From contig JAGOQK010000002.1 of the NCBI GenBank assembly GCA_017991475.1, forward strand, positions 23,673 through 87,672: a DNA stretch of 64,000 nt. The letters run 5' to 3'. This DNA comes from Minisyncoccota bacterium (GTDB taxonomy: Bacteria > Patescibacteriota > Minisyncoccia > Phycocordibacterales > PALSA-1337). Within the stretch, counting starts at the first letter, position 1, and each line of letters opens with the position of its first letter. Positions 5,544 to 37,836 of the stretch are shown here, in pieces. The notes beneath the pieces were generated by a model, which made no database searches, had not been told where the DNA came from, and worked only from the letters and a program-made list of their open reading frames with translations. The translations under genes were made by a program, and so were the position numbers.

Positions 5544-6923
5544 TTGTACAATCACCCCAAACCCAGTAGAATATCCCTCATGACCTCGCTCGAAAAGAAA
5601 TCAAAGCCTTCATTTGTCATACAAGGCCTCGGGGGCAAGAGAACCCTCAAGGGAACTATCCGTATCAATGGCGCCAAGAATGCTGCACTCAAGGCCATGG
5701 CTGCTGCAGTACTCTTCGGTGGGCCAGTGGAGCTTCAAAACATTCCTGATAATGCGGATATAGGGACGATGGGAGAAGTGCTCAGAAGACTTGGGGCGGA
5801 TGTCAAAGTTCAAAGTTCAAATGACAAAGATGAATCGCATGGTTTAACTTTAACTATTGATTCAACAACGATTAACTCGACGGATATAGACCAGGAATTG
5901 GCGGGAGGGATGAGGGCATCTGTTGTGTTGACTGGACCACTTCTCGCACGATATGGGAAAGTCAGTTTTCCGGCACCAGGGGGATGTGTTATCGGCGCAC
6001 GCCCAATCGATCTTTTCCTCTCTGCATATGAACAGCTCGGTGCAACTGTTGAGGAGACTGAGTGCTTGTACAACATTCAAGGCAAGAAGTTGTCTCCGAA
6101 AGAAATAACGTTCAAGAAGATATCTGTTGGTGCTACTGAGACCCTCATGATGGCGGCAGTGCTCTTGGATGGTCAGACGATCCTCAATAACTGCGCGAAG
6201 GAGCCAGAAATTGTAAATGTCGCGGAATGGTTGAACGCGTGTGGTGCGAGTATCAAAGGTGCAGGAACTTCAACCATTGTGATTGATGGCACGAATGGAA
6301 GGTTGCTCTCGCCGAAAGTTCCGTTTGTCACGATTCCTGATCGCATCGAAGCGGGCAGTTTCATTCTTTTGGCCGCGTTGACTGCGGAGGATGTGGCTAT
6401 AGAAAACTGCGAACCGAAACATTTGGGCACGCTTCTGGATTTGTTACAAGGTTCCGGAGTGAATATGGAAATAGGTTCAACCTCTATTCGTGTCATCAAT
6501 GATCCAAAGTCTCCAACACCATTCAAGTCATTCAATATTGAAACTCGAGAATACCCAGGTTTCCCAACTGATATTCAGGCACCCGCAGTCGTTTTCCTCA
6601 CTCAAGCAGAGGGAACAAGCAAGGTCACCGAGACTATTTTTGAGGGAAGATTCAAATATATTGAGGATCTCATTGTCCTCGGTGCGAATATTACACCGGT
6701 AAGTCCTCAGGAAATTTCGGTAACTGGTCCGTGCGACCTGAAACAATCAACAGATAGTAGAGAATTGACTACACACGACATCCGAGCTGGTTTTGCTGTC
6801 GTGCTCGCGGCACTCATCGGAGAAGGGAAGTTTGTCGTGAATAATGTCCATCTTATCGATCGTGGGTACGAAAAGTTGGAGGAGCGACTCAGGGGTTTGG
6901 GTGCGGATATTGTGAGGGTTTAA
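5544..6923 (+). CDS. murA: UDP-N-acetylglucosamine 1-carboxyvinyltransferase
   Basis: IQGLGGKRTLKGTIRINGAKNAALKAMAAAVL...GARPIDLF... is the typical MurA/EPSP-synthase fold. The likely start is Met at 5580 (MTSLEKK). Confidence 0.9.
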   Translation: MYNHPKPSRISLMTSLEKKSKPSFVIQGLGGKRTLKGTIRINGAKNAALKAMAAAVLFGGPVELQNIPDNADIGTMGEVLRRLGADVKVQSSNDKDESHGLTLTIDSTTINSTDIDQELAGGMRASVVLTGPLLARYGKVSFPAPGGCVIGARPIDLFLSAYEQLGATVEETECLYNIQGKKLSPKEITFKKISVGATETLMMAAVLLDGQTILNNCAKEPEIVNVAEWLNACGASIKGAGTSTIVIDGTNGRLLSPKVPFVTIPDRIEAGSFILLAALTAEDVAIENCEPKHLGTLLDLLQGSGVNMEIGSTSIRVINDPKSPTPFKSFNIETREYPGFPTDIQAPAVVFLTQAEGTSKVTETIFEGRFKYIEDLIVLGANITPVSPQEISVTGPCDLKQSTDSRELTTHDIRAGFAVVLAALIGEGKFVVNNVHLIDRGYEKLEERLRGLGADIVRV

Positions 6924-20704: not shown

Positions 20705-21829
20705 ATGTCACTCTCCATCGGCATCGTCGGCCTGCCCAATGTAGGCAAATCAACTCTTTTCAACGCTCTGACCAAGAAGAGTGTTCTTGTTGCAAACTAC
20801 CCATTTGCGACTATCGACCCCTCGGTCGGAGTTGTCGCTGTACCGGATGAACGTCTCCATAAGCTTGCGGAATTTTCAAAGACCCAGAAGACTGTTCCTG
20901 CAGTTGTTGAGTTCGTCGATATTGCCGGTCTCGTCAAGGGTGCATCTGACGGCGAAGGTCTCGGCAACCAATTCCTGACCAACATCCGTGAGACAGACGC
21001 GATCGCAGAAGTGGTGCGCATATTCGAGGATGACAACATCATCCATGTTGATGGCAAGATCAACCCGCTCAAGGATATCGAGGTCATCAATCTCGAGCTC
21101 ATTCTTGCTGATATGCAAACAGTAACCAAGAGACTGGCCAACCTCAACAAGGAGGTTCGTGCGGGTAAGAAGGAGGCCATCATAGAGGCTGGTCTCGTTG
21201 AAAGAATTAAAACAGCCCTTGAATCAGGAAAACTCGCTTCTACGGTCACTCCCGATGAATTTGAGGCGCCATTCCTGCAACATCTCCATCTTCTTACCTC
21301 AAAACCCTTTATGTATGTCCTGAATAAGAAGTCAGGTGGCAAGAATTTGGACGAGATCAACGACGATCGTTTCCAAGCACTTCTGAAATTCTTTGCTGAT
21401 ACCAATGCGAAGTATGTCATTGTCGACGCGGGTATCGAGCAAGAGCTCAAGGATATGGAAGGCCCTGACAAGGTAGAGATGCGTAAGGCATTCTTCGGAG
21501 ACAATATGTCAGTAGAGGCACTCGCGAAGTCTGACGGTATCGATAACCTCATCAAGAAGGGATACGAGCTTTTGAATTTGATTACATATTTTACAACAGG
21601 CGAGAAGGAGACTCGTGCATGGACTATCGGTCGTGGCTGGACAGCGCCCAAGGCTGGCACTGCTATCCATGGAGATTTCGAAGCAAAATTCATCCGAGCG
21701 GAAGTTATTGAGTGGAATAAACTCATCGAAGCTGGATCCTTTGGTGCTGCTCGTGAAAAAGGATGGCTCAGAACTGAAGGGAAGGAGTATGTGGTCAATG
21801 ATGGTGATGTGATGGAATTCAAGATTTAG
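20705..21829 (+). CDS. ychF: ribosome-binding ATPase YchF (Obg-family GTPase)
   Basis: G1 IGIVGLPNVGKSTLFNALT. TGS domain at the C-terminus. Confidence 0.92.
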   Translation: MSLSIGIVGLPNVGKSTLFNALTKKSVLVANYPFATIDPSVGVVAVPDERLHKLAEFSKTQKTVPAVVEFVDIAGLVKGASDGEGLGNQFLTNIRETDAIAEVVRIFEDDNIIHVDGKINPLKDIEVINLELILADMQTVTKRLANLNKEVRAGKKEAIIEAGLVERIKTALESGKLASTVTPDEFEAPFLQHLHLLTSKPFMYVLNKKSGGKNLDEINDDRFQALLKFFADTNAKYVIVDAGIEQELKDMEGPDKVEMRKAFFGDNMSVEALAKSDGIDNLIKKGYELLNLITYFTTGEKETRAWTIGRGWTAPKAGTAIHGDFEAKFIRAEVIEWNKLIEAGSFGAAREKGWLRTEGKEYVVNDGDVMEFKI

Positions 21830-21977
21830 CCCTATTTTAGCCACAATACCGCTCAACAGAGCCATATAATTATCCCCAAAAACTTGCTTTTTGGGGTCAT
21901 ATGTGCTATAATAGTAACAGGTTAGAGTTTCGTCAGTTTGGTAAATTTTGCACAAAAAAATCAACAAGGGATCATCA

Positions 21978-22263
21978 ATATGAGAAGCGTACCGGTCAAG
22001 TCCGCGATCGCCCATCGGAAATGGAATCGCGAACACAACAGTCATTCCTGCAAGCTTCACTTCACTGGTTTCAAACCAGAACGATTGTGGAGATTTGTCG
22101 GGTTAACAGTCCTCATCCTGGCCATCATTGTTCTCCTGGGAAAGGTAACTCAATGAGCAGTAAGCTACGTTCATCGAGCTGGCCACAACTCATCATCACT
22201 GTCATTATCGGAGCTGGCACTATCTGTGCCTTTATCTACGAGCTTCTCAAGATGATCAAGTGA
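21978..22263 (+). CDS. two tandem tiny membrane peptides (59 aa at 21978-22156 and 36 aa at 22153-22263)
   Basis: Each has one hydrophobic helix. AGGGA about 10 nt upstream of the first. Confidence 0.25.
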
Positions 22264-22276
22264 CACAGTTTTCAGA

Positions 22277-22310
22277 AACCGCATCCCTCACCGGACGCGG
22301 TTTTCTTTTT
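22277..22310 (+). terminator. intrinsic terminator
   Basis: AACCGCATCC-ctcacc-GGACGCGGTT followed by TTCTTTTT. Confidence 0.6.
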
Positions 22311-22332
22311 GTAAAAAGTGCCATTTTAAGCT

Positions 22333-25300
22333 ATGATTTTACCCATGAAGAAACCTCAATCGAAAGCGAAGCTGCTCGGCGCATATGACCACAAGAAGGT
22401 AGAAGCAAAGTGGCAGAAGCAGTGGGACAAAACCAAAGCATTCAAAGCTACCGAAGATCCCAAGAAGAAGAAATTCTTTGGCTTGATTGAGTTCCCATAC
22501 CCATCAGGAGATGGTCTCCATGTCGGACATATCCGCTCCAACACAGCCATGGATATCATTGCTCGCAAGAGGCGCCGTGAGGGATACGAGGTGTTGTACC
22601 CAATAGGTTGGGATGCATTCGGTCTGCCAACTGAGAACTACGCTATCAAGACTGGCATCCAGCCTGCCATCGTTACCAAAAAGAACACCGACACATTCCG
22701 TCGCCAGCTCAAGGCACTCGGATTCTCTTTTGATTGGTCACGCGAAATCAACACAACTGATCCGAAGTATTACCGCTGGACACAGTGGATCTTTTTACAG
22801 TTCCTGAAAAAGGGATTGGCATACAAGAAGAAGATGACGATCAACTGGTGTCCCAAGGATCTCATCGGTCTTGCGAACGAAGAGGTGGTCAATGGATGCT
22901 GTGAGCGTTGTGGAACTCCTGTCGAGAAGCGCGACAAGGAGCAGTGGATGCTGGCGATAACAAAGTATGCTGATCGCCTCGACAAGGATCTTGATACGGT
23001 TGATTTTCTCGACAGGATAAAGACACAGCAGAGAAATTGGATAGGGAAGAGTGAAGGAGCGGAGATTAAATTCGAAGTTCGAATATCGAGATCCGAAGCA
23101 AATTCAAAATTAGAAGTACAAATACCTAAAAGGGAGATTACCGTCTTCACGACTCGCCCAGATACCCTCTTTGGTGTGACCTACGTGGTGCTTGCTCCTG
23201 AACATAAGCTCGTGGGTGAATTAATATCCACGATAGAAAATGCTGCAGAAGTTCGTGACTATATTTCAAAGTCCAAGCAGGAGACAGATATCCAAAGAAC
23301 CGACGCCTCAAAAGAAAAGTCAGGCGTGCAACTCAAGGGCATCATGGCCGTCAATCCTGTGAATGGCGAGGAAATCCCAGTCTGGATCTCCGACTATGTG
23401 CTCGCAGACTATGGTACAGGAGCTGTTATGGCTGTTCCTGCACATGATGATCGCGATTTTGAGTTTGCCCAGAAGTACAATCTACCGATCAAGACTGTCA
23501 TCGAGCCTCTCATTGTCAAAGAAGACGGCACTGATGCAGTCAGGAAAGATGCACCCTATGTCGAGCGCAATGCAGCAGTGTGTATCATCAAGCATTGGTC
23601 GGAGGACAAGTATCTCATGTCATTCTACAAAGCCAACGGCTGGAAAGGCTTTGTCGTGGGCGGAATTGAGAATGGTGAGAGCGTCGCAGTTACCGGCACT
23701 CGTGAGATTCATGAGGAGACGGGATACAAAAATGCAAAGTTCGTTCGTGAGGTCGGTACTATTCACTCAAAGTTCTTCCACGCAGTAAAATCTGTGAACA
23801 GGTTCGCTCACTTCAAGGTCGCATATTTCGAACTCTCCGATGGAGATCGTGACGAAATGGCTGAAGAGGAAAAGAAGCTTCATGATGTGGTCTGGCTTTC
23901 TCCCCAAGAAGTCACCACAGCAGTCAATCGCGAAGATATCAAGATCGCTTGGGACTTCTTCAATGGAAAAATTTCATATACAGGAAATGGTCTGCTCACA
24001 AATTCCAACTCATTTGATGGTAAGGATTCAGAATCAGTCAAAAAGGAAATCACCGAGAAGGCGGGTGGCAAGTGGGTTACCACATTCAAGCTCCGTGACT
24101 GGGTGTTCTCTCGCCAGCGTTATTGGGGAGAGCCGATACCAGTCGTACATTGTGATGTATGCGGTGTAGTTCCTGTCCCTGAAAAAGATCTTCCCGTCAA
24201 ACTCCCGAAGGTCAAGAATTATAAGCCGACAGAGACCGGCGAGTCACCACTTGCTGCTATTGAGAAGTGGGTGAATACCACTTGTCCCAATTGTGTCGCG
24301 AATAAGAAGAAACCAAAGTACCTCATCTTCGATTTTGATGGAGTGCTCGGAAACACGTGGACTGAATCAAATGAGGTCAAGGTTGTTATGGGTGATTCGG
24401 CGACTGTAGAGGATGCAGCGGCAGTCACGATGAAACATTTTGATAAGAAGCCATCTACAGAACGCAACCATTCGCTAACGACTGAGCAGTTGCAGAAGAA
24501 GCAAGAATGGATTACTACATTCGGAAAACATCTTTCCGAAACGGATTTTGGTTTGTTCAAAGGCTTTATTGCTGAACTGAAGAAGATCAAGAATGCAAAG
24601 TTTGCAGTCGTCTCATCAGGTTCATCACAGTATGTACTTCCTGCACTCAAAAAATCGGGGATTAAGTTCACACACATTCTTGCCTACGAAGATCACTACT
24701 CGAAGGAGGAAAAGGTAGAAAAAGTCTGTAAGGACTGGGGTATCTCACCGAAGGATGCATATTATTTTACCGATACTAAGGCGGACATTCTTGAGCTTCA
24801 GGATTTGATGGGTCGCGAGCGCATGATTGGATGTGCCTGGGGATGGCATGGATATGAAAAACTAAACGAGCTTCTTCCTGAAAAAATGATCCTTAGGGAA
24901 TTCAAAGACGTTCGCAAAGTCCTCAATCTTGACTGTCTTGCAAAGCGCGAAACAGATACGATGCCAAACTGGGCAGGTTCGAGCTGGTACTATCTCCGCT
25001 ACACAGATCCCAAAAATTCGAAAGAGTTCGCATCAATAGACAATCTCAAGTACTGGACTCCTGTCGACTGGTACAACGGCGGCATGGAGCATACAACTTT
25101 GCACTTGCTCTACTCTCGCTTCTGGCACAAATTCTTGTTCGACCTCGGACTCGTTCCGACCAGTGAGCCGTATCAGAAGAGGACATCTCACGGCCTCATC
25201 CTTGCCGCAGGTGGCGAGAAGATGTCCAAGTCAAAGGGTAATGTCGTGAACCCTGACAGCATCATCGAGACTGTCGGTGCAGATAGTTTGCGCCTGTATG

Positions 25301-25890
25301 AGATGTTCATGGGTCCATTTGATCAGCCGATTGCATGGAATACAGATAATATTGCGGGAGTGCGACGCTTTATTGAGAGAGTGTGGAAGCTCCGTGAGAA
25401 AATTCAGATAGGCACGGCCTCATCTAGGGATGCACAGAAAACCATCCACAAAACGATCAAGAAAGTAACTGAGGATATCGAAGCCATGCGTTTCAATACT
25501 GCAATCAGTTCACTTATGATCGCGCTCAATGAGCTTGAAAAGGTGGAATCGGTGACGGTTGAAAATTTTGAAGCTCTGCTCCAGCTCCTCGCTCCGTTTG
25601 CTCCACACGTCACTGAGGAGCTCTGGGCGTCACTTGGGTACAAGGATTCTATTCATGCATCACCATGGCCCGTATATGACCCTGCACAGGCAGTCGATAG
25701 TGAGGTGACTATCATGATCCAAATCAATGGCAAGACTCGTGGTTCATTTACCGCACCTATCGATACCTCGAAAGAGGAGCTTGAAAAACTCGCCAAGGAT
25801 TCACCGGAAGGAAAAAAGTGGTTGGAAGGTAAGTCCATCTCTAAAGTTATTGTAGTACCGAACAAGTTGGTGAACATTGTAGTCTTATAG
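22333..25890 (+). CDS. leuS: leucyl-tRNA synthetase with two inserted extra domains (Nudix and HAD)
   Basis: HIGH (PYPSGDGLHVGH), the editing region, KMSKS and the C-terminal anticodon-binding region are all present in one 1185-aa frame. An extra Nudix box lies at about 23570-23960 (GGIENGESVAVTGTREIHEETGY). An extra HAD motif-I segment lies at about 24300-24940 (LIFDFDGVLG), between CPNC and AKRETDTM. Confidence 0.9.
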   Translation: MILPMKKPQSKAKLLGAYDHKKVEAKWQKQWDKTKAFKATEDPKKKKFFGLIEFPYPSGDGLHVGHIRSNTAMDIIARKRRREGYEVLYPIGWDAFGLPTENYAIKTGIQPAIVTKKNTDTFRRQLKALGFSFDWSREINTTDPKYYRWTQWIFLQFLKKGLAYKKKMTINWCPKDLIGLANEEVVNGCCERCGTPVEKRDKEQWMLAITKYADRLDKDLDTVDFLDRIKTQQRNWIGKSEGAEIKFEVRISRSEANSKLEVQIPKREITVFTTRPDTLFGVTYVVLAPEHKLVGELISTIENAAEVRDYISKSKQETDIQRTDASKEKSGVQLKGIMAVNPVNGEEIPVWISDYVLADYGTGAVMAVPAHDDRDFEFAQKYNLPIKTVIEPLIVKEDGTDAVRKDAPYVERNAAVCIIKHWSEDKYLMSFYKANGWKGFVVGGIENGESVAVTGTREIHEETGYKNAKFVREVGTIHSKFFHAVKSVNRFAHFKVAYFELSDGDRDEMAEEEKKLHDVVWLSPQEVTTAVNREDIKIAWDFFNGKISYTGNGLLTNSNSFDGKDSESVKKEITEKAGGKWVTTFKLRDWVFSRQRYWGEPIPVVHCDVCGVVPVPEKDLPVKLPKVKNYKPTETGESPLAAIEKWVNTTCPNCVANKKKPKYLIFDFDGVLGNTWTESNEVKVVMGDSATVEDAAAVTMKHFDKKPSTERNHSLTTEQLQKKQEWITTFGKHLSETDFGLFKGFIAELKKIKNAKFAVVSSGSSQYVLPALKKSGIKFTHILAYEDHYSKEEKVEKVCKDWGISPKDAYYFTDTKADILELQDLMGRERMIGCAWGWHGYEKLNELLPEKMILREFKDVRKVLNLDCLAKRETDTMPNWAGSSWYYLRYTDPKNSKEFASIDNLKYWTPVDWYNGGMEHTTLHLLYSRFWHKFLFDLGLVPTSEPYQKRTSHGLILAAGGEKMSKSKGNVVNPDSIIETVGADSLRLYEMFMGPFDQPIAWNTDNIAGVRRFIERVWKLREKIQIGTASSRDAQKTIHKTIKKVTEDIEAMRFNTAISSLMIALNELEKVESVTVENFEALLQLLAPFAPHVTEELWASLGYKDSIHASPWPVYDPAQAVDSEVTIMIQINGKTRGSFTAPIDTSKEELEKLAKDSPEGKKWLEGKSISKVIVVPNKLVNIVVL

Positions 25891-26089: not shown

Positions 26090-27181
26090 TTGACTTTATT
26101 ACAACCAAGTGCTACAAATAGTAGCAATTACTTATCAGCGAATTACATGGCAACTACAACCATTTCGTTCAAGCCCAAGCAAATCGTCAAGAGACTCCTC
26201 GCCTCACTTCCTGACCGTGCCCGTGATGTTATTCTCTATCGTTACGGACTCGGTGCAGACACACGCCGCATGACCCTCGATGGTATCGGCAAGAAGTACA
26301 GCATTACTCGTGAGCGCGTACGCCAAATCGAGAACTACGCTCTCGGAATGATCCGCAAATCAGATGAGTACAAGCTTGAAAAAGCCGTATTCTCTGAAAT
26401 CGAAAACCTCCTTCATGCATTTGGTGGTGTCGTCGTCGAAGATGATTTCCTCGGACATCTCACCAAAGACAAGAGTCTCCAGAACCATATCCATTTCCTC
26501 CTTGTGATCGGCGAACCGTTCACCAAGAAGAAGGAAGACGACGAATTCAGTCATCGCTGGCACGTCAACGAGGCTCTCGCCAACCAGGTCGAGGATGCTC
26601 TTCGCAAGCTCTATGCCAATCTCAACAATCAAGATCTCCTTCCTGAATCAGAGATCATCAACAAGTTCCTCAATCATCTTGAAGGCGTCTCTGAGCGCTA
26701 CAAGAACCAGGAGATTATGAAGCGCTGGCTTGCCCTCTCAAAGTCGATCGGCAAGAATGCCCTCGGCGACTGGGGTACCGCCAAGTCATCAAACATCAAG
26801 ACCAAGGGTATGCGTGATTATGCGTTCCTCGTTATCAGGAAACATGGTTCACCGATACACTTCCGTGATGTTGCAAAACAGATCACCTCTATGTTCAACA
26901 AGAAAGCCCATGTCGCAACGACGCACAATGAGCTCATCAAGGATCCTCGTTTCGTTCTCGTTGGCCGCGGTCTCTATGCTCTCGCTGAGTGGGGATACGC
27001 TCCCGGTATCGTCCGCGATGTCATCCGTCACGTGATCGAGAAGAATGGCCCAATGACCAAGGATGAGATCGTCACCAAAGTCATGAAGGAACGCTATGTG
27101 AAGGAAAACACTATCGCCGTCAATCTTCAGAATCCAAAGTATTTCAAGAAGGACAAGGAAGGTAAATATTCCGCAGCGTAA
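26090..27181 (+). CDS. sigma-70 region-4-like HTH fused to a C-terminal HARE-HTH-like domain
   Basis: Region 4-like segment: ...LPDRARDVILYRYGL...TLDGIGKKYSITRERVRQIENYAL. C-terminal winged-helix resembles the HARE-HTH of RNAP delta/restriction enzymes: DYAFLVIRKHGSPIHFRDVAKQI...KDPRFVLVGRGLYALAEWGY. The likely start is Met at 26147. Confidence 0.55.
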   Translation: MTLLQPSATNSSNYLSANYMATTTISFKPKQIVKRLLASLPDRARDVILYRYGLGADTRRMTLDGIGKKYSITRERVRQIENYALGMIRKSDEYKLEKAVFSEIENLLHAFGGVVVEDDFLGHLTKDKSLQNHIHFLLVIGEPFTKKKEDDEFSHRWHVNEALANQVEDALRKLYANLNNQDLLPESEIINKFLNHLEGVSERYKNQEIMKRWLALSKSIGKNALGDWGTAKSSNIKTKGMRDYAFLVIRKHGSPIHFRDVAKQITSMFNKKAHVATTHNELIKDPRFVLVGRGLYALAEWGYAPGIVRDVIRHVIEKNGPMTKDEIVTKVMKERYVKENTIAVNLQNPKYFKKDKEGKYSAA

Positions 27182-27294
27182 ATAATAGCAAGTTGCTTGG
27201 AAGAAGAGGTTATAATGACCTCTTTTTTCATGCATGAAGATCCTCATTGTTTTGCTGATTTTGGACTTTCCACATTATGTTGTAAACTTAGAGC

Positions 27295-28575
27295 ATGCCA
27301 CTCGAACAGTACTTCCCGGTGCTCGTCAAAGAGTTCCAGGGTATCATTCTTCCGCAATCAATACAGTTCGCCATCACGATAGCCCCTATCGTGCTGTGCA
27401 TCATTCTTGCAACGATCATGTGGCCTCTCTGGGTGCGCTATGTCCGTGCCAAGTTCTTCCTGTCACTCAAATACACGGTACTGGAAATATCACTCCCGAA
27501 GGACACATTCAAATCGCCCCTTGCAATGGAGGTCTTCCTCCAGTCGCTCCACAATACTTCGAACGGAAGCCACTTCGCACAATTCTGGAAAGGGGAGATG
27601 AGGCCATGGTATTCACTCGAGGTTGTCTCGATCGAAGGCCGCATCAAGTTTTTCGTCTGGACAGAGGATCGCCGTAAGGCAGGTGTCATCAATGGTCTGT
27701 ACTCACAATTCCCAGGGATTGAGGTCAAAGAAGTTGAGGATTACACCAAGTCAGTGCATTTCGATCCAGACACCATGAAGGTATGGGCAGCAGAAATGAA
27801 ATTTACTAAAGATGACGCGTACCCGATAAAATCCTATGTCGACTATGGTCTCGACAAAGATCCGAAGGAAGAATTTAAAGTTGATCCCATGCTCCCGATG
27901 CTCGAATTCCTCGGCAGCGTCGGCCCCAATCAGCAGGTATGGATACAAATACTCATTCAGGCACATATTCCCGATAAGCGTAAACCCGGACACTGGTTCA
28001 AAAAGGTGGATAGCTACCAGGAAGGAGCCAAGAAGCTCGTCAACGATATCATGATCCGCGACTCCAAGACCAAAGGTATCAAGGCTGAGAATAAGAAAAG
28101 TGGGGAAGTATTTCCTGACATACCACGCCTCTCAAAAGGTGAGCAAGATGTTGCTGAAGCGATCGAGCGCAGTGTCTCCAAACTTTCTTTTGATACCGGT
28201 ATCCGTGGTATATACATGGGCAGCAAGGAATCATTCAATACTATCTTTGGTGTTGGTGGTATCCTCGGAAGCTTCAAGCATTTCAACACAGAGCACCTCA
28301 ATGGATTCAAGCCTAACGGCGATGTATGGCATCCACGCCTCGGAGATCCGTGGAAAGACTACAAAGATATCCGCAGGAATAGGTACGCGGCCGACGCTAT
28401 CGCGATGTACAAACGTCGCTCATATCACTATGCACCTCACGAAGGGAAGCCGCTTGTCATGAGCACCGAGGAGCTCGCTACGGTCTACCACTTCCCAGGA
28501 TCTGTTGCTGCAACCCCTACACTCCAGCGCATACCATCCAAGAAAGCCGAAGCTCCATCCAATCTTCCTCTCTAG
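27295..28575 (+). CDS. large membrane-anchored hypothetical protein
   Basis: One N-terminal TM helix (ITIAPIVLCIILATIMWPLWV) then about 380 aa of soluble domain with no recognised motif. Confidence 0.4.
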   Translation: MPLEQYFPVLVKEFQGIILPQSIQFAITIAPIVLCIILATIMWPLWVRYVRAKFFLSLKYTVLEISLPKDTFKSPLAMEVFLQSLHNTSNGSHFAQFWKGEMRPWYSLEVVSIEGRIKFFVWTEDRRKAGVINGLYSQFPGIEVKEVEDYTKSVHFDPDTMKVWAAEMKFTKDDAYPIKSYVDYGLDKDPKEEFKVDPMLPMLEFLGSVGPNQQVWIQILIQAHIPDKRKPGHWFKKVDSYQEGAKKLVNDIMIRDSKTKGIKAENKKSGEVFPDIPRLSKGEQDVAEAIERSVSKLSFDTGIRGIYMGSKESFNTIFGVGGILGSFKHFNTEHLNGFKPNGDVWHPRLGDPWKDYKDIRRNRYAADAIAMYKRRSYHYAPHEGKPLVMSTEELATVYHFPGSVAATPTLQRIPSKKAEAPSNLPL

Positions 28576-28578
28576 TCT

Positions 28579-29604
28579 ATGTCTGCTCTCAATTTCAGAA
28601 TCATACCGGATACCCGGCGCTCGCCCAGCCTGTACACCAGGATCAAGAGGGTCCTCCGTGGAAGCAAGATGGCTATCGGCGCATTCTTCATTGTATTGAT
28701 AGCGGTATCGCTGTTCGGTATAGCCAAATCACTAGCGCCGAGCGACTTCTCTCGCGGCACGATCGTCCGTATCAAGGACGGCATGACGGTATCAGAAACG
28801 GCATCGTTGCTCGCGGAAAAGAATATCATCCGGTCTCAATTTATGTACAAAGCATATGTACGCCTGGTACATAGCAGCAATGGTGTCCGTGCCGGCAGCT
28901 ATCTGTTCGACAACCCTCAGTCAGCACTGCGGGTGGCGTATAGGACTGCATATGGCGTCGATGAACTACAGAAGATCAAAGTTGCGATACCCGAGGGTTC
29001 GAGCTCAGTGAATATTGCGCGGATTATTAAAAAGGCGATACCGGCATTTGATGACAAAGCATTCCTGGCTGAAGCGCGGGTGCATGAAGGATATTTATTC
29101 CCTGAAACATACTTTTTTAATCCTGATGTGACTCCAAAGGAAGTGATCTCTGAAATGAAGAGTCAATTCAATGAGAAGGTGGCGACACTGATGGACGCTA
29201 TTGCAACATCTACTCATTCCCTGAATAACATCATCATTCTTGCGTCCATCCTCGAAGAGGAGGCGAACAATACCGTCGACCGGCGCTTGATTTCAGGAGT
29301 GCTCTGGAATCGCACTGATATAGGCATGGCGCTCCAAGTCGATGCACCGTTCTATTATCTCTTTGGTAAAACATCGAGCCAGCTGACTCTGGCTGACCTC
29401 GCGACCACATCACCCTATAACACCTACAAAAATAAGGGGCTTCCACCTGGTGCGATATCCAATCCTGGCCTCGACTCCATCAAGGCCGCGCTTTATCCGA
29501 CACCCTCGAAGTATCTGTTTTATCTTGCTGATTCGAAGGGGGTGACGCACTATGCGGTCACACATGAGCAGCATGTTGAGAATAAGTTCAAGTATTTGCA
29601 ATAA
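28579..29604 (+). CDS. mltG: endolytic murein transglycosylase MltG (YceG family)
   Basis: TM anchor. YceG motifs: GYLFPETY, ASILEEE and a SPYNTYKNKGLPPGAISNPG-type C-terminus. Confidence 0.8.
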   Translation: MSALNFRIIPDTRRSPSLYTRIKRVLRGSKMAIGAFFIVLIAVSLFGIAKSLAPSDFSRGTIVRIKDGMTVSETASLLAEKNIIRSQFMYKAYVRLVHSSNGVRAGSYLFDNPQSALRVAYRTAYGVDELQKIKVAIPEGSSSVNIARIIKKAIPAFDDKAFLAEARVHEGYLFPETYFFNPDVTPKEVISEMKSQFNEKVATLMDAIATSTHSLNNIIILASILEEEANNTVDRRLISGVLWNRTDIGMALQVDAPFYYLFGKTSSQLTLADLATTSPYNTYKNKGLPPGAISNPGLDSIKAALYPTPSKYLFYLADSKGVTHYAVTHEQHVENKFKYLQ

Positions 29605-35955: not shown

Positions 35956-37836
35956 ATGACCCAGAAGCTCACCTCCGCGGATATTCGTTCACGATTCCTC
36001 GCATTCTTCGAGAAGCGTGGCCACACGGTCATACCTTCAGCATCACTGGTGACTCCAGATGAGAAGGGTATCACCAATGCAACTCTCTTCAACACCGCGG
36101 GCATGCAGCCACTGGTGCCATATTTGCTGGGCAAACCCTACATCGCAGATGGCAAGAATGTAACTCGGCTCGTAGATGCCCAGAAATGCGTCCGTACAGT
36201 GGATATCGATGATATTGGTGATAAGACACACGCAACTTTTTTCGAAATGCTCGGCAACTGGTCTCTCGGTGATTATTTCAAGCGTGAAGCTATCGAGTGG
36301 AGCTATGAATTCCTAACATCGAAGAGTACTGTGCCTGGTGATCAAGGACTTGGTCTCGATCCGAACCAACTCTATGTGACCGTCTTCGAAGGTGATACTG
36401 TCGCCCCTCGCGACGATGAGGCTGCATCTATCTGGCGTGAAATATTTACGAAAAACGGTATTGAGGTTGGTGGTGACACTACAAAAGGCGAGAAGGGAAG
36501 AATTTTCTATCTTCCTGCGAAGAACAACTGGTGGGAAGCGGGCGACAATGGTCCGTGCGGTCCAGATACCGAGATGTTCTATGATATTTCTGGCAAATTC
36601 TCAGGAAAGCTTTTGACACATACAGAATTCGTCGCTGCTGATGATACTCGTGATGTCGTAGAGGTCTGGAATGATGTCTTCATGCAATATGAGAAGAAGG
36701 ATGGCACGATCATCGGCAAACTTCCGAAGCCCTCGGTGGATACGGGTGCTGGTCTCGAGCGTCTCACGATGACACTCCAGGGTGTGGATAATATCTATGA
36801 TACGGATCTTCTCAAGCCGGTGATGGATCTCATGAAGAGTCCTGACAACCCTATCCGTAACAGACGCATCATCGCCGATCATCTCCGTGGAAGTGCATTC
36901 ATGATCACTGACGGGGTGATCCCATCGAACACAGATCGTGGGTACATCCTTCGCCGCCTCATCCGTCGTGCGATCGTCAATACGACTGACAAGAAGTTGG
37001 ATGCTGAACGTATCTCTGTATTCGTCGACACATTGGTTAACATTTACAAGGATGCATATCCGGAACTTTCCAAGAATGGGGAACATATCAAGAAGGTTTT
37101 GTCCGAGGAGTCTGCCAAGTTTGCAGAAGCGCTCACACACGGCATGCATGAATTTGGTCGCATCTCAAATTCTGGGGCTATCTCGGGAGCCGATGCCTTT
37201 ATGTTGTTCTCATCTTTTGGACTGCCGATCGATGTGACCAAGGAACTAGCGAAGGAAAAGGGGCTTACTGTTGACCTTGTCGCATTTGAGGCAGAATTCA
37301 AAGCCCACCAAGACCTCTCCCGCGCTGGCGCAGAACAAAAATTCAAGGGTGGTCTCGCAGATGCCAATGATCCGATGGTTGTTCGTTATCACACAGCCAC
37401 TCATTTGCTCCACCAAGCTCTCCATGATGTTCTCGGTGAGGATACAGGCAATCAGAAGGGCTCGAATATTACTGCAGAGCGATTGCGCTTCGACTTCACA
37501 GGTGTCAAACTGACTGATGAGCAGAAGAAGCGTGTAGAAGATATCGTGAATGAGAAGATCGCTGCTTCACTACCAATGAACAATGTGGTTCTTCCACGAG
37601 CAGAGGCAGAGAAGACTGGTGCGTGTCACTTCTTCGGAGAGAAGTATGGTGAGGAAATTTCTATTTATTTTGTCGGGAATGATCTCGCATCTGCATATTC
37701 CAAGGAATTTTGTGGCGGCCCTCATGTGAAGAATACGAGTGAACTTGCGGGACCAGAAGGGAAGTGGAGATTCAAGATTCAGAAGGAGGAGGCTGTGTCG
37801 CAGGGGGTGAGGAGGATTAAGGCGATGCTTGGCTAG
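35956..37836 (+). CDS. alaS: alanyl-tRNA synthetase, short form lacking the C-terminal C-Ala domain
   Basis: Catalytic N-terminus (FLAFFEKRGH...NAGMQPL...FEMLGNWSLGDYFK), the editing-domain HxxxH (HTATHLLHQALH) and CGGPHV. Confidence 0.88.
   Translation: MTQKLTSADIRSRFLAFFEKRGHTVIPSASLVTPDEKGITNATLFNTAGMQPLVPYLLGKPYIADGKNVTRLVDAQKCVRTVDIDDIGDKTHATFFEMLGNWSLGDYFKREAIEWSYEFLTSKSTVPGDQGLGLDPNQLYVTVFEGDTVAPRDDEAASIWREIFTKNGIEVGGDTTKGEKGRIFYLPAKNNWWEAGDNGPCGPDTEMFYDISGKFSGKLLTHTEFVAADDTRDVVEVWNDVFMQYEKKDGTIIGKLPKPSVDTGAGLERLTMTLQGVDNIYDTDLLKPVMDLMKSPDNPIRNRRIIADHLRGSAFMITDGVIPSNTDRGYILRRLIRRAIVNTTDKKLDAERISVFVDTLVNIYKDAYPELSKNGEHIKKVLSEESAKFAEALTHGMHEFGRISNSGAISGADAFMLFSSFGLPIDVTKELAKEKGLTVDLVAFEAEFKAHQDLSRAGAEQKFKGGLADANDPMVVRYHTATHLLHQALHDVLGEDTGNQKGSNITAERLRFDFTGVKLTDEQKKRVEDIVNEKIAASLPMNNVVLPRAEAEKTGACHFFGEKYGEEISIYFVGNDLASAYSKEFCGGPHVKNTSELAGPEGKWRFKIQKEEAVSQGVRRIKAMLG

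Follow-up and report, generated by a model that had tools for sequence, protein, structure and literature searches.

The stretch of DNA analysed here, a window of 64,000 nucleotides (64 kb) on contig JAGOQK010000002.1, comes from a bacterium of the Paceibacterota, in the Patescibacteria or candidate phyla radiation (CPR), and contains leuS, the gene for leucyl-tRNA synthetase (LeuRS). Within the single open reading frame (ORF) of this gene, which encodes 1185 amino acids (aa), lie two further enzyme modules: a Nudix domain nested in the CP1 editing domain and a HAD domain nested at the second of the two zinc knuckles. The gene and its parts are laid out as follows.

22333..25890, + strand: leuS, encoding LeuRS with two nested enzyme modules; one 1185-aa ORF, stop codon included
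22333..23508, + strand: N-terminal catalytic half of LeuRS, ZN1 and most of the CP1 editing domain; motifs invariant or nearly so in 61 homologues
22519-22530, + strand: HIGH motif (HVGH), aa 63-66; invariant in 61 homologues
23149-23166, + strand: T-rich editing motif TTRPDT, aa 273-278
23440-23457, + strand: editing Asp residues in AHDDRD; D372 and D375 invariant
23509..23970, + strand: nested Nudix module, aa ~393-546, at insertion site C in the C-terminal part of the CP1 editing domain
23659..23727, + strand: Nudix box GGIENGESVAVTGTREIHEETGY, aa 443-465, predicted metal-binding and catalytic helix
23971..24300, + strand: LeuRS segment between the modules, with the CP1 return strand RDWVFSRQRYWGEPIP and both zinc knuckles
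24148-24165, + strand: first zinc knuckle, HCDVCG
24283-24294, + strand: second zinc knuckle, CPNC, aa 651-654
24301..24936, + strand: nested HAD module, aa ~657-868, at insertion site E directly after the second zinc knuckle
24331..24345, + strand: HAD motif I, DFDGV, aa 667-671 (nucleophile D667, acid/base D669)
24607-24624, + strand: HAD motif II, VVSSGS, aa 759-764 (S762)
24700-24714, + strand: HAD motif III, SKEEK, aa 790-794 (K791/K794)
24766-24786, + strand: HAD motif IV, FTDTKAD, aa 812-818 (D814/D818)
24937..25890, + strand: C-terminal half of LeuRS, from AKRETDTM onward, with the second Rossmann half and the anticodon-binding and C-terminal domains
25219-25233, + strand: KMSKS motif, aa 963-967; invariant in 61 homologues

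Translation of the frame from 22333 to 25890 meets no internal stop, and the product scores 994.9 bits against TIGR00396 (leuS_bact), for which the cut-off is 548.4. Pfam recognises the class I catalytic, LeuRS editing (PF13603, 212 bits) and anticodon-binding domains, and the HIGH and KMSKS motifs, the T-rich motif, the editing aspartates and the zinc cysteines show little or no variation in an alignment of 61 homologues. By family score and motifs the gene is a bacterial-type LeuRS, for which leucylation and editing are predicted. An AlphaFold2 model of the full protein, built from a 61-sequence alignment, has a mean predicted local distance difference test score (pLDDT) of 85 and a predicted template modelling score (pTM) of 0.72, with pLDDT of ~89-96 in the Nudix region and ~85-96 in the HAD region. 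The modelled scaffold superposes on the solved LeuRS structures of E. coli, Thermus and Neisseria with a target-normalised template modelling score (TM) of ~0.8.

The Nudix module is inserted after ...AHDDRDFEFAQKYNLPIKTVIEP (aa 370-392), where the residues immediately preceding it read ...KYNLPIKTVIEP, and LeuRS resumes at GLLTNSNSFDGK (aa 553). Pfam NUDIX (PF00293) matches aa 432-530 with 44 bits in context and 48.3 bits when the module is excised (gathering cut-off 21.1), and the box GGIENGESVAVTGTREIHEETGY fits GX5EX7REUXEEXGU exactly. When modelled alone the module adopts the alpha/beta/alpha Nudix fold (pLDDT 94.6), and a Foldseek comparison of this model with the PDB gave 494 matches of Nudix type (E <= 1e-3), the highest TM being 0.81. 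In a survey of the 120 LeuRS closest to the window protein, the box is strict in 101 of the 115 proteins that carry a Nudix module, and E458, E462 and G464 are at least 90% conserved. The variant boxes mostly replace E7 by Q or D, or R15 by A or S, and mostly keep the E..EE metal ligands.

At the tip of the second zinc knuckle, CPNC (aa 651-654) and AKRETDTM (aa 870-877) flank the HAD module. Pfam HAD_2 (PF13419) matches aa 664-819 with 46.9 bits (gathering cut-off 23.8), and the excised module scores 26.7 bits against TIGR01549 (HAD-SF-IA-v1; cut-off 23.3). All four HAD motifs are invariant in each of 24 embedded modules, and in 36 of 36 sequences when free-standing proteins are included, with hosts down to ~53% identity. 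Four model helices (676-685, 692-702, 717-735 and 743-750) form a C1 cap between motif I (667) and motif II (762). On these features the module is a C1-capped enzyme of HAD subfamily IA, a class that acts on small phosphomonoesters, and phosphatase activity is predicted for it. Since the catalytic residues of both modules are conserved, both are probably active, the Nudix domain as a pyrophosphohydrolase. Most of the HADs nested at the knuckle end in a conserved Cys (...FNTDC or NLDC) just before AKRETDTM, which free-standing HADs lack; this Cys might restore a zinc ligand or be an adaptation specific to the junction.

An alternative is that these segments are ordinary lineage-specific expansions of LeuRS, or catalytically dead remnants, in which the motifs arose by chance and which serve at most a structural or tRNA-binding role. 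The Nudix region does diverge faster than the LeuRS core (mean identity 43% compared with ~70-80%), and ~12% of Nudix modules have a non-canonical box. However, the Pfam scores are about twice the gathering cut-offs, homology to free-standing enzymes is full-length (E to 1e-62), the catalytic residues have changed little or not at all over deep divergence, and canonical folds are modelled at high confidence. As to domain identity this alternative is largely refuted, and taken as a whole we consider it very improbable.

Another way to explain the composite frame would be as an assembly chimera or frameshift that joins separate genes, or as an intein or intron that is spliced out. In its favour, GenBank lists for the same 119,640-bp contig a 360-aa product, MBP6858434.1, that starts inside the HAD, and in one relative, L010, the junction of LeuRS and HAD coincides exactly with an in-frame TAA. 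Against it, an independent assembly (L004) carries the identical full-length gene, and at least 21 species-representative genomes share its architecture, as do many contigs, including metagenome contigs (NCBI, JGI, ENA, Logan). The window frame has no internal stops, Pfam finds no Hint, intein, homing-endonuclease or LAGLIDADG family in the protein, an HN[CST] boundary is absent anywhere in it, and the sole Rfam match in the window is one tRNA, with no intron. The flanks of the inserts hold only short repeats at chance level, a reason to reject a transposon or mobile-element signature, and GC content is only mildly lower across the HAD. Each insert corresponds in its entirety to an enzyme domain. 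The inserts are not an intein, an intron or an assembly artefact, and we attach next to no probability to explanations of this kind.

The two annotations and the split relative are of some interest in themselves. MBP6858434.1 (P0230 in our set) is named 'class I tRNA ligase family protein' and covers window positions ~24811-25890, so that the 1185-aa ORF does not appear in this record as a single product, and JGI labels a close homologue, P0002, simply 'HAD superfamily hydrolase'. In L010 the TAA lies at 5591-5593 (...KWVNVKA*NEKKYFIFDFDGV...) and the CPxC knuckle is missing; the locus could hold a truly split LeuRS, and thereby a possible nesting intermediate, or a pseudogene, or an assembly error.

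Much of this architecture had been put forward in a sequence-only reading of the window. That reading described leuS as one uninterrupted 1185-aa frame, as we confirm (no internal stop; 995 bits to TIGR00396), with a complete Nudix box and domain (exact GX5EX7REUXEEXGU, Pfam NUDIX over its cut-off) at 23570-23960 and a HAD between CPNC and AKRETDTM (HAD_2 over its cut-off, four motifs) at 24300-24940, placements that fall within tens of bases of the limits ~23509-23970 and ~24301-24936. It was correct that the synthetase is longer than usual, by about 300 residues in its estimate; relative to the closest insert-less LeuRS, of 843-861 aa, the excess is ~340. Three checks that it proposed came out in its favour: both hidden Markov models score about twice their gathering cut-offs, AlphaFold renders both modules as confident autonomous domains, and the same inserts recur among related LeuRS. 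Neither chance motifs nor a chimera, the two objections it had named, held in the face of canonical folds, full-length homology and the independent assembly, and its distinction between domain insertions and inteins stands, given the lack of any Hint, intein or endonuclease family or HN[CST] and the end-to-end homology to free enzymes.

The neighbours of leuS are these.

20705..21829, + strand: gene for the YchF GTPase, conserved upstream synteny partner of leuS
26090..29604, + strand: conserved downstream synteny of leuS, overall
26090-27181, + strand: gene for a sigma70-r4/HARE-HTH protein
27295-28575, + strand: gene for a DUF8128-family protein
28579-29604, + strand: YceG gene

The order YchF ... 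leuS, sigma70-r4/HARE-HTH, DUF8128, YceG is conserved, and this is therefore the canonical leuS locus; the gene is the housekeeping LeuRS of its host. Relatives have a DUF5671 gene and a free-standing HAD gene between ychF and leuS, whereas the window has ~500 bp there with neither; this gap (21830-22332) holds a 120-aa ORF at 21901-22263. No nested modules were found in the other synthetases of the window (an Asp/Asn-type enzyme and AlaRS). AlaRS (35956-37836) is only 626 aa long, with a catalytic domain and tRNA_SAD, and the usual long C-terminal region is apparently absent.

Free-standing counterparts of the modules

The HAD module aligns with ~110 free-standing Patescibacteria HADs of ~205 aa over their whole length from residue 2, next to the start Met, to the C-terminus, at 35-53% identity and with E-values down to 4e-62. 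For the Nudix module a word-index homologue search gave only 2 matches, and an exhaustive search of 1.84 billion representatives gave 338 relatives, 182 of them at E <= 1e-10. Among the best 149 of these relatives, 108 are LeuRS or fragments of LeuRS and ~25 are free-standing proteins of 155-190 aa that start with their own methionine. The ~25 share the N-terminal signature of the module (P.VER.A..I.KH...), which in its longer form, P.VER.A..I.KHW.ED.Y, is common only to the module's Patescibacteria relatives. Judged by these alignments, each module is the equivalent of an entire free-standing gene of Patescibacteria, of ~160 aa for the Nudix and ~205 aa for the HAD. The 64-kb window itself contains no free copy of either family, only the nested ones.

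The free genes are repeatedly found beside leuS. Six free HAD genes (L001, L025, L054-L057) immediately precede leuS in the same orientation, with spacings that range from an 8-bp overlap to a 151-bp gap, and all six loci share the order DUF5671, HAD, leuS, sigma70-r4, DUF8128. In two assemblies 2 nt separate a free Nudix gene, P0254 (47% identical to the window module), from the insert-less leuS downstream of it, and another free Nudix gene, P0249 (44% identical), shares an operon with an insert-less leuS of 823 aa. Within flanks of up to 10 kb (not whole genomes), a free HAD copy accompanies none of 19 loci with an embedded HAD, and an embedded copy occurs in none of the six loci with an adjacent free gene. 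The operon-like row of genes around P0249 (L062, 1482-10389) runs MetRS, an unknown protein, TatD, Nudix P0249, two small ORFs, a YfbR-like HD-domain protein, an unknown protein, a second Nudix of another subfamily and the insert-less leuS, and so forms a cluster of nucleotide hydrolases that adjoins leuS.

Two further leads of this kind were dropped. At L059 a free Nudix gene overlaps the start of a free HAD gene by 4 nt, but this Nudix is unrelated to the LeuRS module (E = 17) and was rejected as a sign of a pathway from Nudix to HAD. At L058 a Ser_hydrolase near a free HAD is 23% identical (E = 8e-5) to an alpha/beta-hydrolase embedded in LeuRS, too weak a match to pursue.

Recurrence across sites and host proteins

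The sequence-only reading had treated the composite gene as a peculiarity of one locus. The survey indicates instead that it is lineage-wide: 115 of the 120 closest LeuRS bear Nudix modules, with one in 91 proteins, two in 20 and three in four. HAD modules are present in 24 of the 120 and Ser_hydrolase/alpha-beta-hydrolase modules in ~24, while a few proteins carry modules without a family match; lengths in the survey range from 843 to 1722 aa. We numbered the insertion points on P0086, an insert-less LeuRS in which the loops at the two positions occupied in the window protein are VIVISDCFTGDGKMINSG and CPQCKGPARRETDTM.

~220-230 (P0086 numbering): CP1 hinge
~259: inside CP1
~412: site of the window Nudix
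~473: after the first zinc knuckle
~520: following the second zinc knuckle, where the window HAD sits

LeuRS has at least five to six recurrent insertion sites in all, and the Nudix family occupies all five listed points (sites A to E). The HAD family is found mostly at the second knuckle and also at the Nudix site (L016-L018, L021, L023), within CP1 (L034) and in the anticodon-binding domain (L026), and in L028 it replaces the first knuckle; this makes at least five LeuRS sites for HAD.

Neither family is confined to LeuRS. The same HAD family, at 33-39% identity, is nested in or fused to four other Patescibacteria proteins, namely CTP synthase (PyrG), Der/EngA, PNPase and another class I aminoacyl-tRNA synthetase (aaRS), encoded at L030 3125-5497, L031 2060-3769, L032 9791-11890 and L033 2-2287; in PyrG it sits between the synthase and glutamine amidotransferase (GATase) domains. 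The Nudix family is nested in an archaeal-type ProRS (P0365, 643 aa), at residues ~393-538 between the anticodon-binding and C-terminal domains. In P0294 an HGTP_anticodon domain is joined with the same Nudix family.

Modules and scaffolds have not evolved in step. LeuRS cores that are 75-87% identical to that of the window can hold, at the same site, a Nudix module only 32-35% identical to the window's, and a tree of Nudix modules, used qualitatively since the site labels of some single-copy proteins are crude, shows an interleaving of free-standing genes with modules of different sites. This divergence between core and module, together with the interleaving, suggests repeated capture, replacement or relocation of the modules.

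Some LeuRS accumulate up to five foreign modules (P0010, at 1722 aa, and P0014, P0016, P0052, P0057 and P0116), one set comprising two tandem Nudix modules at the CP1 hinge, an alpha/beta-hydrolase, a site C Nudix and a HAD. The 217-aa insert at site B of P0056 has no Pfam match and only faint co-linear matches to dITP/XTP pyrophosphatases (ITPase-like; E 0.15-0.34), and no Pfam match or detectable relative was found for the site D insert of P0106 (~148 aa) or the insert of P0118 (134 aa). Four short proteins of 273-287 aa (P0321, P0346, P0351 and P0366) start with methionine and consist of a partial LeuRS editing-domain segment followed by a Nudix module; they could be fragments of leuS genes that are split or wrongly called, or else CP1-Nudix proteins that stand alone.

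Function and origin of the nested modules

We used the model of the Nudix module to look for substrate hints among its structural neighbours. Its nearest solved fold is an uncharacterised Enterococcus Nudix protein (2AZW), followed by the Aquifex hydrolase of diadenosine tetraphosphate (Ap4A; TM 0.81), the mycobacterial ApnA (diadenosine polyphosphate) hydrolases MutT1/Rv2985, and then CT771, Ndx1 and RppH. The ApnA hydrolases (3I7U, 9CXX, 4MPO, 1VC8) are interspersed with MutT1, NUDT7, NudI and RppH within ~2.5 log units of E-value, and an Ap4A-type substrate is compatible with the modelled fold without being established by it. A Tyr 16-18 residues past the Nudix box reportedly marks ApnA hydrolases, according to work of the Bessman laboratory. 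The window module lacks this marker and has F481-F482-H483 at the position, which keeps an aromatic residue and so is a weak sign in either direction; several relatives have a Tyr there, as in SKFYH.

The sequence-only reading went on to propose that the Nudix domain could hydrolyse in cis the Ap4A that LeuRS makes. In its strict form this explanation holds that the module is an Ap4A hydrolase placed to destroy Ap4A or Ap4N from the same molecule, as part of the LeuRS cycle. In favour of it, Ap4A comes mainly from aaRSs and is cleaved asymmetrically to ATP and AMP by Nudix enzymes (PMC13627108). ApnA hydrolases are also enriched among the nearest solved folds of the module, and the family is tied to adenylate-forming enzymes in three ways, by nesting in LeuRS, by nesting in ProRS and by sharing an operon with leuS. 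However, the same Nudix family appears at no fewer than five LeuRS positions and in one to three copies per protein, which leaves no conserved geometry, and in ProRS as well, while the HAD has at least five sites and four unrelated hosts. No Ap4A-specific model or motif matched, with Phe-Phe-His at the position of the Tyr marker, and the HAD, alpha/beta-hydrolase and other modules of the same protein go unexplained. The coupling proposed is thus not established, with fold matches at 14-20% identity, bunched E-values and no subfamily model, and we judge the strict form distinctly unlikely.

At the other extreme, the modules may be housekeeping hydrolases unrelated to LeuRS, operon neighbours that, in a small genome under strong drift, fused into tolerant loops of an essential gene and are now neither separable from it nor open to loss, as in a neutral ratchet or hitch-hiking. 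The promiscuity of hosts (LeuRS, ProRS, another class I aaRS, PyrG, Der, PNPase) and of insertion sites speaks for this, as do the correspondence of modules to whole genes and the presence of several unrelated module types on one scaffold. Chance fusion alone, however, does not predict that the link to leuS should recur as both adjacency and nesting, for two unrelated enzyme families, and a hint of selection comes from the hosts identified, all of which are growth-machinery enzymes that use nucleotides. We regard pure hitch-hiking as possible but doubtful.

The reading we prefer, and consider probable, is of a LeuRS scaffold that bears two autonomous and probably active hydrolases as alternative encodings of free genes. 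A predicted Nudix pyrophosphohydrolase is nested in a surface loop of the CP1 editing domain and a predicted C1-capped HAD phosphatase at the tip of the second zinc knuckle. Nested and free-standing forms would be alternative encodings of the same enzyme, of which the free gene can precede an insert-less leuS in the same operon. The modules would leave the chemistry of aminoacylation unchanged and act as tethered enzymes made 1:1 with LeuRS. The Nudix would most likely cleave a (di)nucleoside polyphosphate or other nucleotide-derived by-product, with Ap4A/ApnN the leading candidate, and the HAD would most likely dephosphorylate a small phosphomonoester, for example a nucleotide or sugar phosphate. 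Nesting may bring the benefit of obligatory co-expression and co-localisation with an essential enzyme coupled to growth, or the fusion may simply be irreversible. Since the same modules recur in several hosts and at many positions, their exact geometry with respect to the active sites of LeuRS cannot be essential; strict in-cis channelling is therefore weakened, and co-expression and co-localisation, or an irreversible neutral fusion, are favoured. This reading overlaps in part with both the in-cis and the hitch-hiking explanations, and our confidence in each is to be taken with that in mind.

Several findings weigh against the account just given. With respect to substrate, the Foldseek matches of the Nudix module are only 14-20% identical, with E-values bunched from ~7e-10 to 2e-7; no Nudix subfamily model of NCBIfam reaches its cut-off (RppH 25 vs 118 bits), and sequence and profile matches of the module in the PDB are generic only. 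For the HAD module, equivalog models are far below their cut-offs (PpaX 24.8 vs 218 bits, PRK13222 23.7 vs 225 bits), a single-sequence PDB search gave no match, and a PDB profile search gave only generic or uncharacterised phosphatases. Activity may be altered or lost in the ~12% of Nudix modules with a variant box. Some free-standing relatives are not near leuS (L003, L022, L024, L027, L029, L058, L059, L063), and the mutual exclusion of nested and free copies pertains to the flanks alone.

The trees add to this caution. In a first neighbour-joining (NJ) tree the embedded HADs appeared as sisters to the genes adjacent to leuS, but the grouping has a bootstrap of only 8% and we have withdrawn the claim of ancestry. 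That tree did correctly predict adjacency to leuS in four more loci, and the synteny observation is kept. Monophyly of the embedded HADs has 20% bootstrap, mean distances do not place the embedded modules nearer to the adjacent group, and bootstraps for the embedded and adjacent groupings range only from 8 to 32%. The module phylogenies are distance-based and poorly supported, and favour no particular direction or number of transfers.

A broader proposal can be framed tentatively, as one that we hold to be conceivable though rather unlikely: that Paceibacteria-type Patescibacteria have a recurrent process which nests hydrolase genes into essential nucleotide-using enzymes, with LeuRS as a 'sanitation platform' functionally tied to its modules. 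The process would draw on Nudix, HAD, Ser_hydrolase-type and possibly ITPase-like modules and place them repeatedly, as whole small genes, in frame in surface loops, above all in LeuRS (up to 1722 aa) but also in ProRS, another class I aaRS, CTP synthase, Der and PNPase. The modules might, for example, clear Ap4N or non-canonical nucleotides where adenylates form, and split genes like that of L010 might be intermediates.

Known systems and significance

The aaRSs are among the most conserved proteins, and to our knowledge nearly all accessory catalytic domains in the aaRSs of bacteria serve editing. Canonical bacterial LeuRS (E. coli 4AQ7/4ARC, T. thermophilus 1H3N/2BTE, N. gonorrhoeae 7NU3) share family, domain order and motifs with the window protein, which differs from them in ~340 extra residues that make up two foreign enzyme domains. 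It also has no leucine-specific domain before KMSKS, unlike the E. coli and Thermus enzymes. The closest curated precedent for a class I aaRS with an accessory enzyme domain is NCBIfam NF040702, ileS_w_GNAT, an isoleucine--tRNA ligase with an N-acetyltransferase. However, both the synthetase and the accessory fold are different and the window protein is not a member, with 77 bits where the cut-off is 1999; the likeness is one of analogy only, and we found no published account of the function of ileS_w_GNAT.

Each module also has its own relatives. The Nudix module shares fold and box with ApnA hydrolases and RppH (Aquifex aq_158, 3I7U; Chlamydia CT771, 4MPO; Thermus Ndx1, 1VC8; M. tuberculosis Rv2985, 9CXX; E. 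coli RppH), with TM up to 0.81 and a root-mean-square deviation of 2.4 A in the best match, but is 14-20% identical to them, has its own N-terminal signature and is nested in another enzyme. Mycobacterial MutT1 (5GG5), whose Nudix part is among the top fold matches, likewise combines a Nudix domain and a phosphatase in one chain. In MutT1 the two are fused end to end and the phosphatase is of the histidine type, whereas in the window they are nested separately in a third enzyme and the phosphatase is a HAD. The HAD module has the motifs, helical cap and HAD_2/TIGR01549 membership of the C1-capped HADs of subfamily IA (3MC1, TM_1254 3KBB, beta-phosphoglucomutase, PpaX), but matches none at equivalog level and belongs to a Patescibacteria-specific family with an extra conserved GCAWG motif. 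Inteins in essential genes are likewise foreign autonomous modules that sit in frame at several sites and in several hosts; the modules described here differ in having no Hint or endonuclease domain and no splicing residues, and a metabolic enzyme is presumably kept in the mature protein.

A full-text literature search, with most subscription journals outside its scope, returned no description of a Nudix or HAD nested in LeuRS or another aaRS, an absence that is not proof. The habit of nesting whole hydrolase genes in LeuRS and other essential proteins of Patescibacteria is apparently undescribed. It has a practical side, in that automatic annotation mishandles such genes, as with the 360-aa GenBank fragment and the JGI label mentioned above, with possible consequences for the marker-gene and completeness pipelines applied to CPR genomes.

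Across a large uncultivated lineage, then, an essential synthetase is seen with one to five foreign hydrolase domains at about half a dozen loop positions that recur. If the modules are hitch-hikers, the family would be a natural experiment in insertion tolerance, offering protein engineers a map of permissive sites in LeuRS, and an example of irreversible gene nesting in reduced genomes. If instead they are active and linked to LeuRS, they would constitute a natural physical coupling of translation with the housekeeping of nucleotides and of the alarmone Ap4A in ultra-small cells, and the old question of local control over the Ap4A made by aaRSs would become testable.

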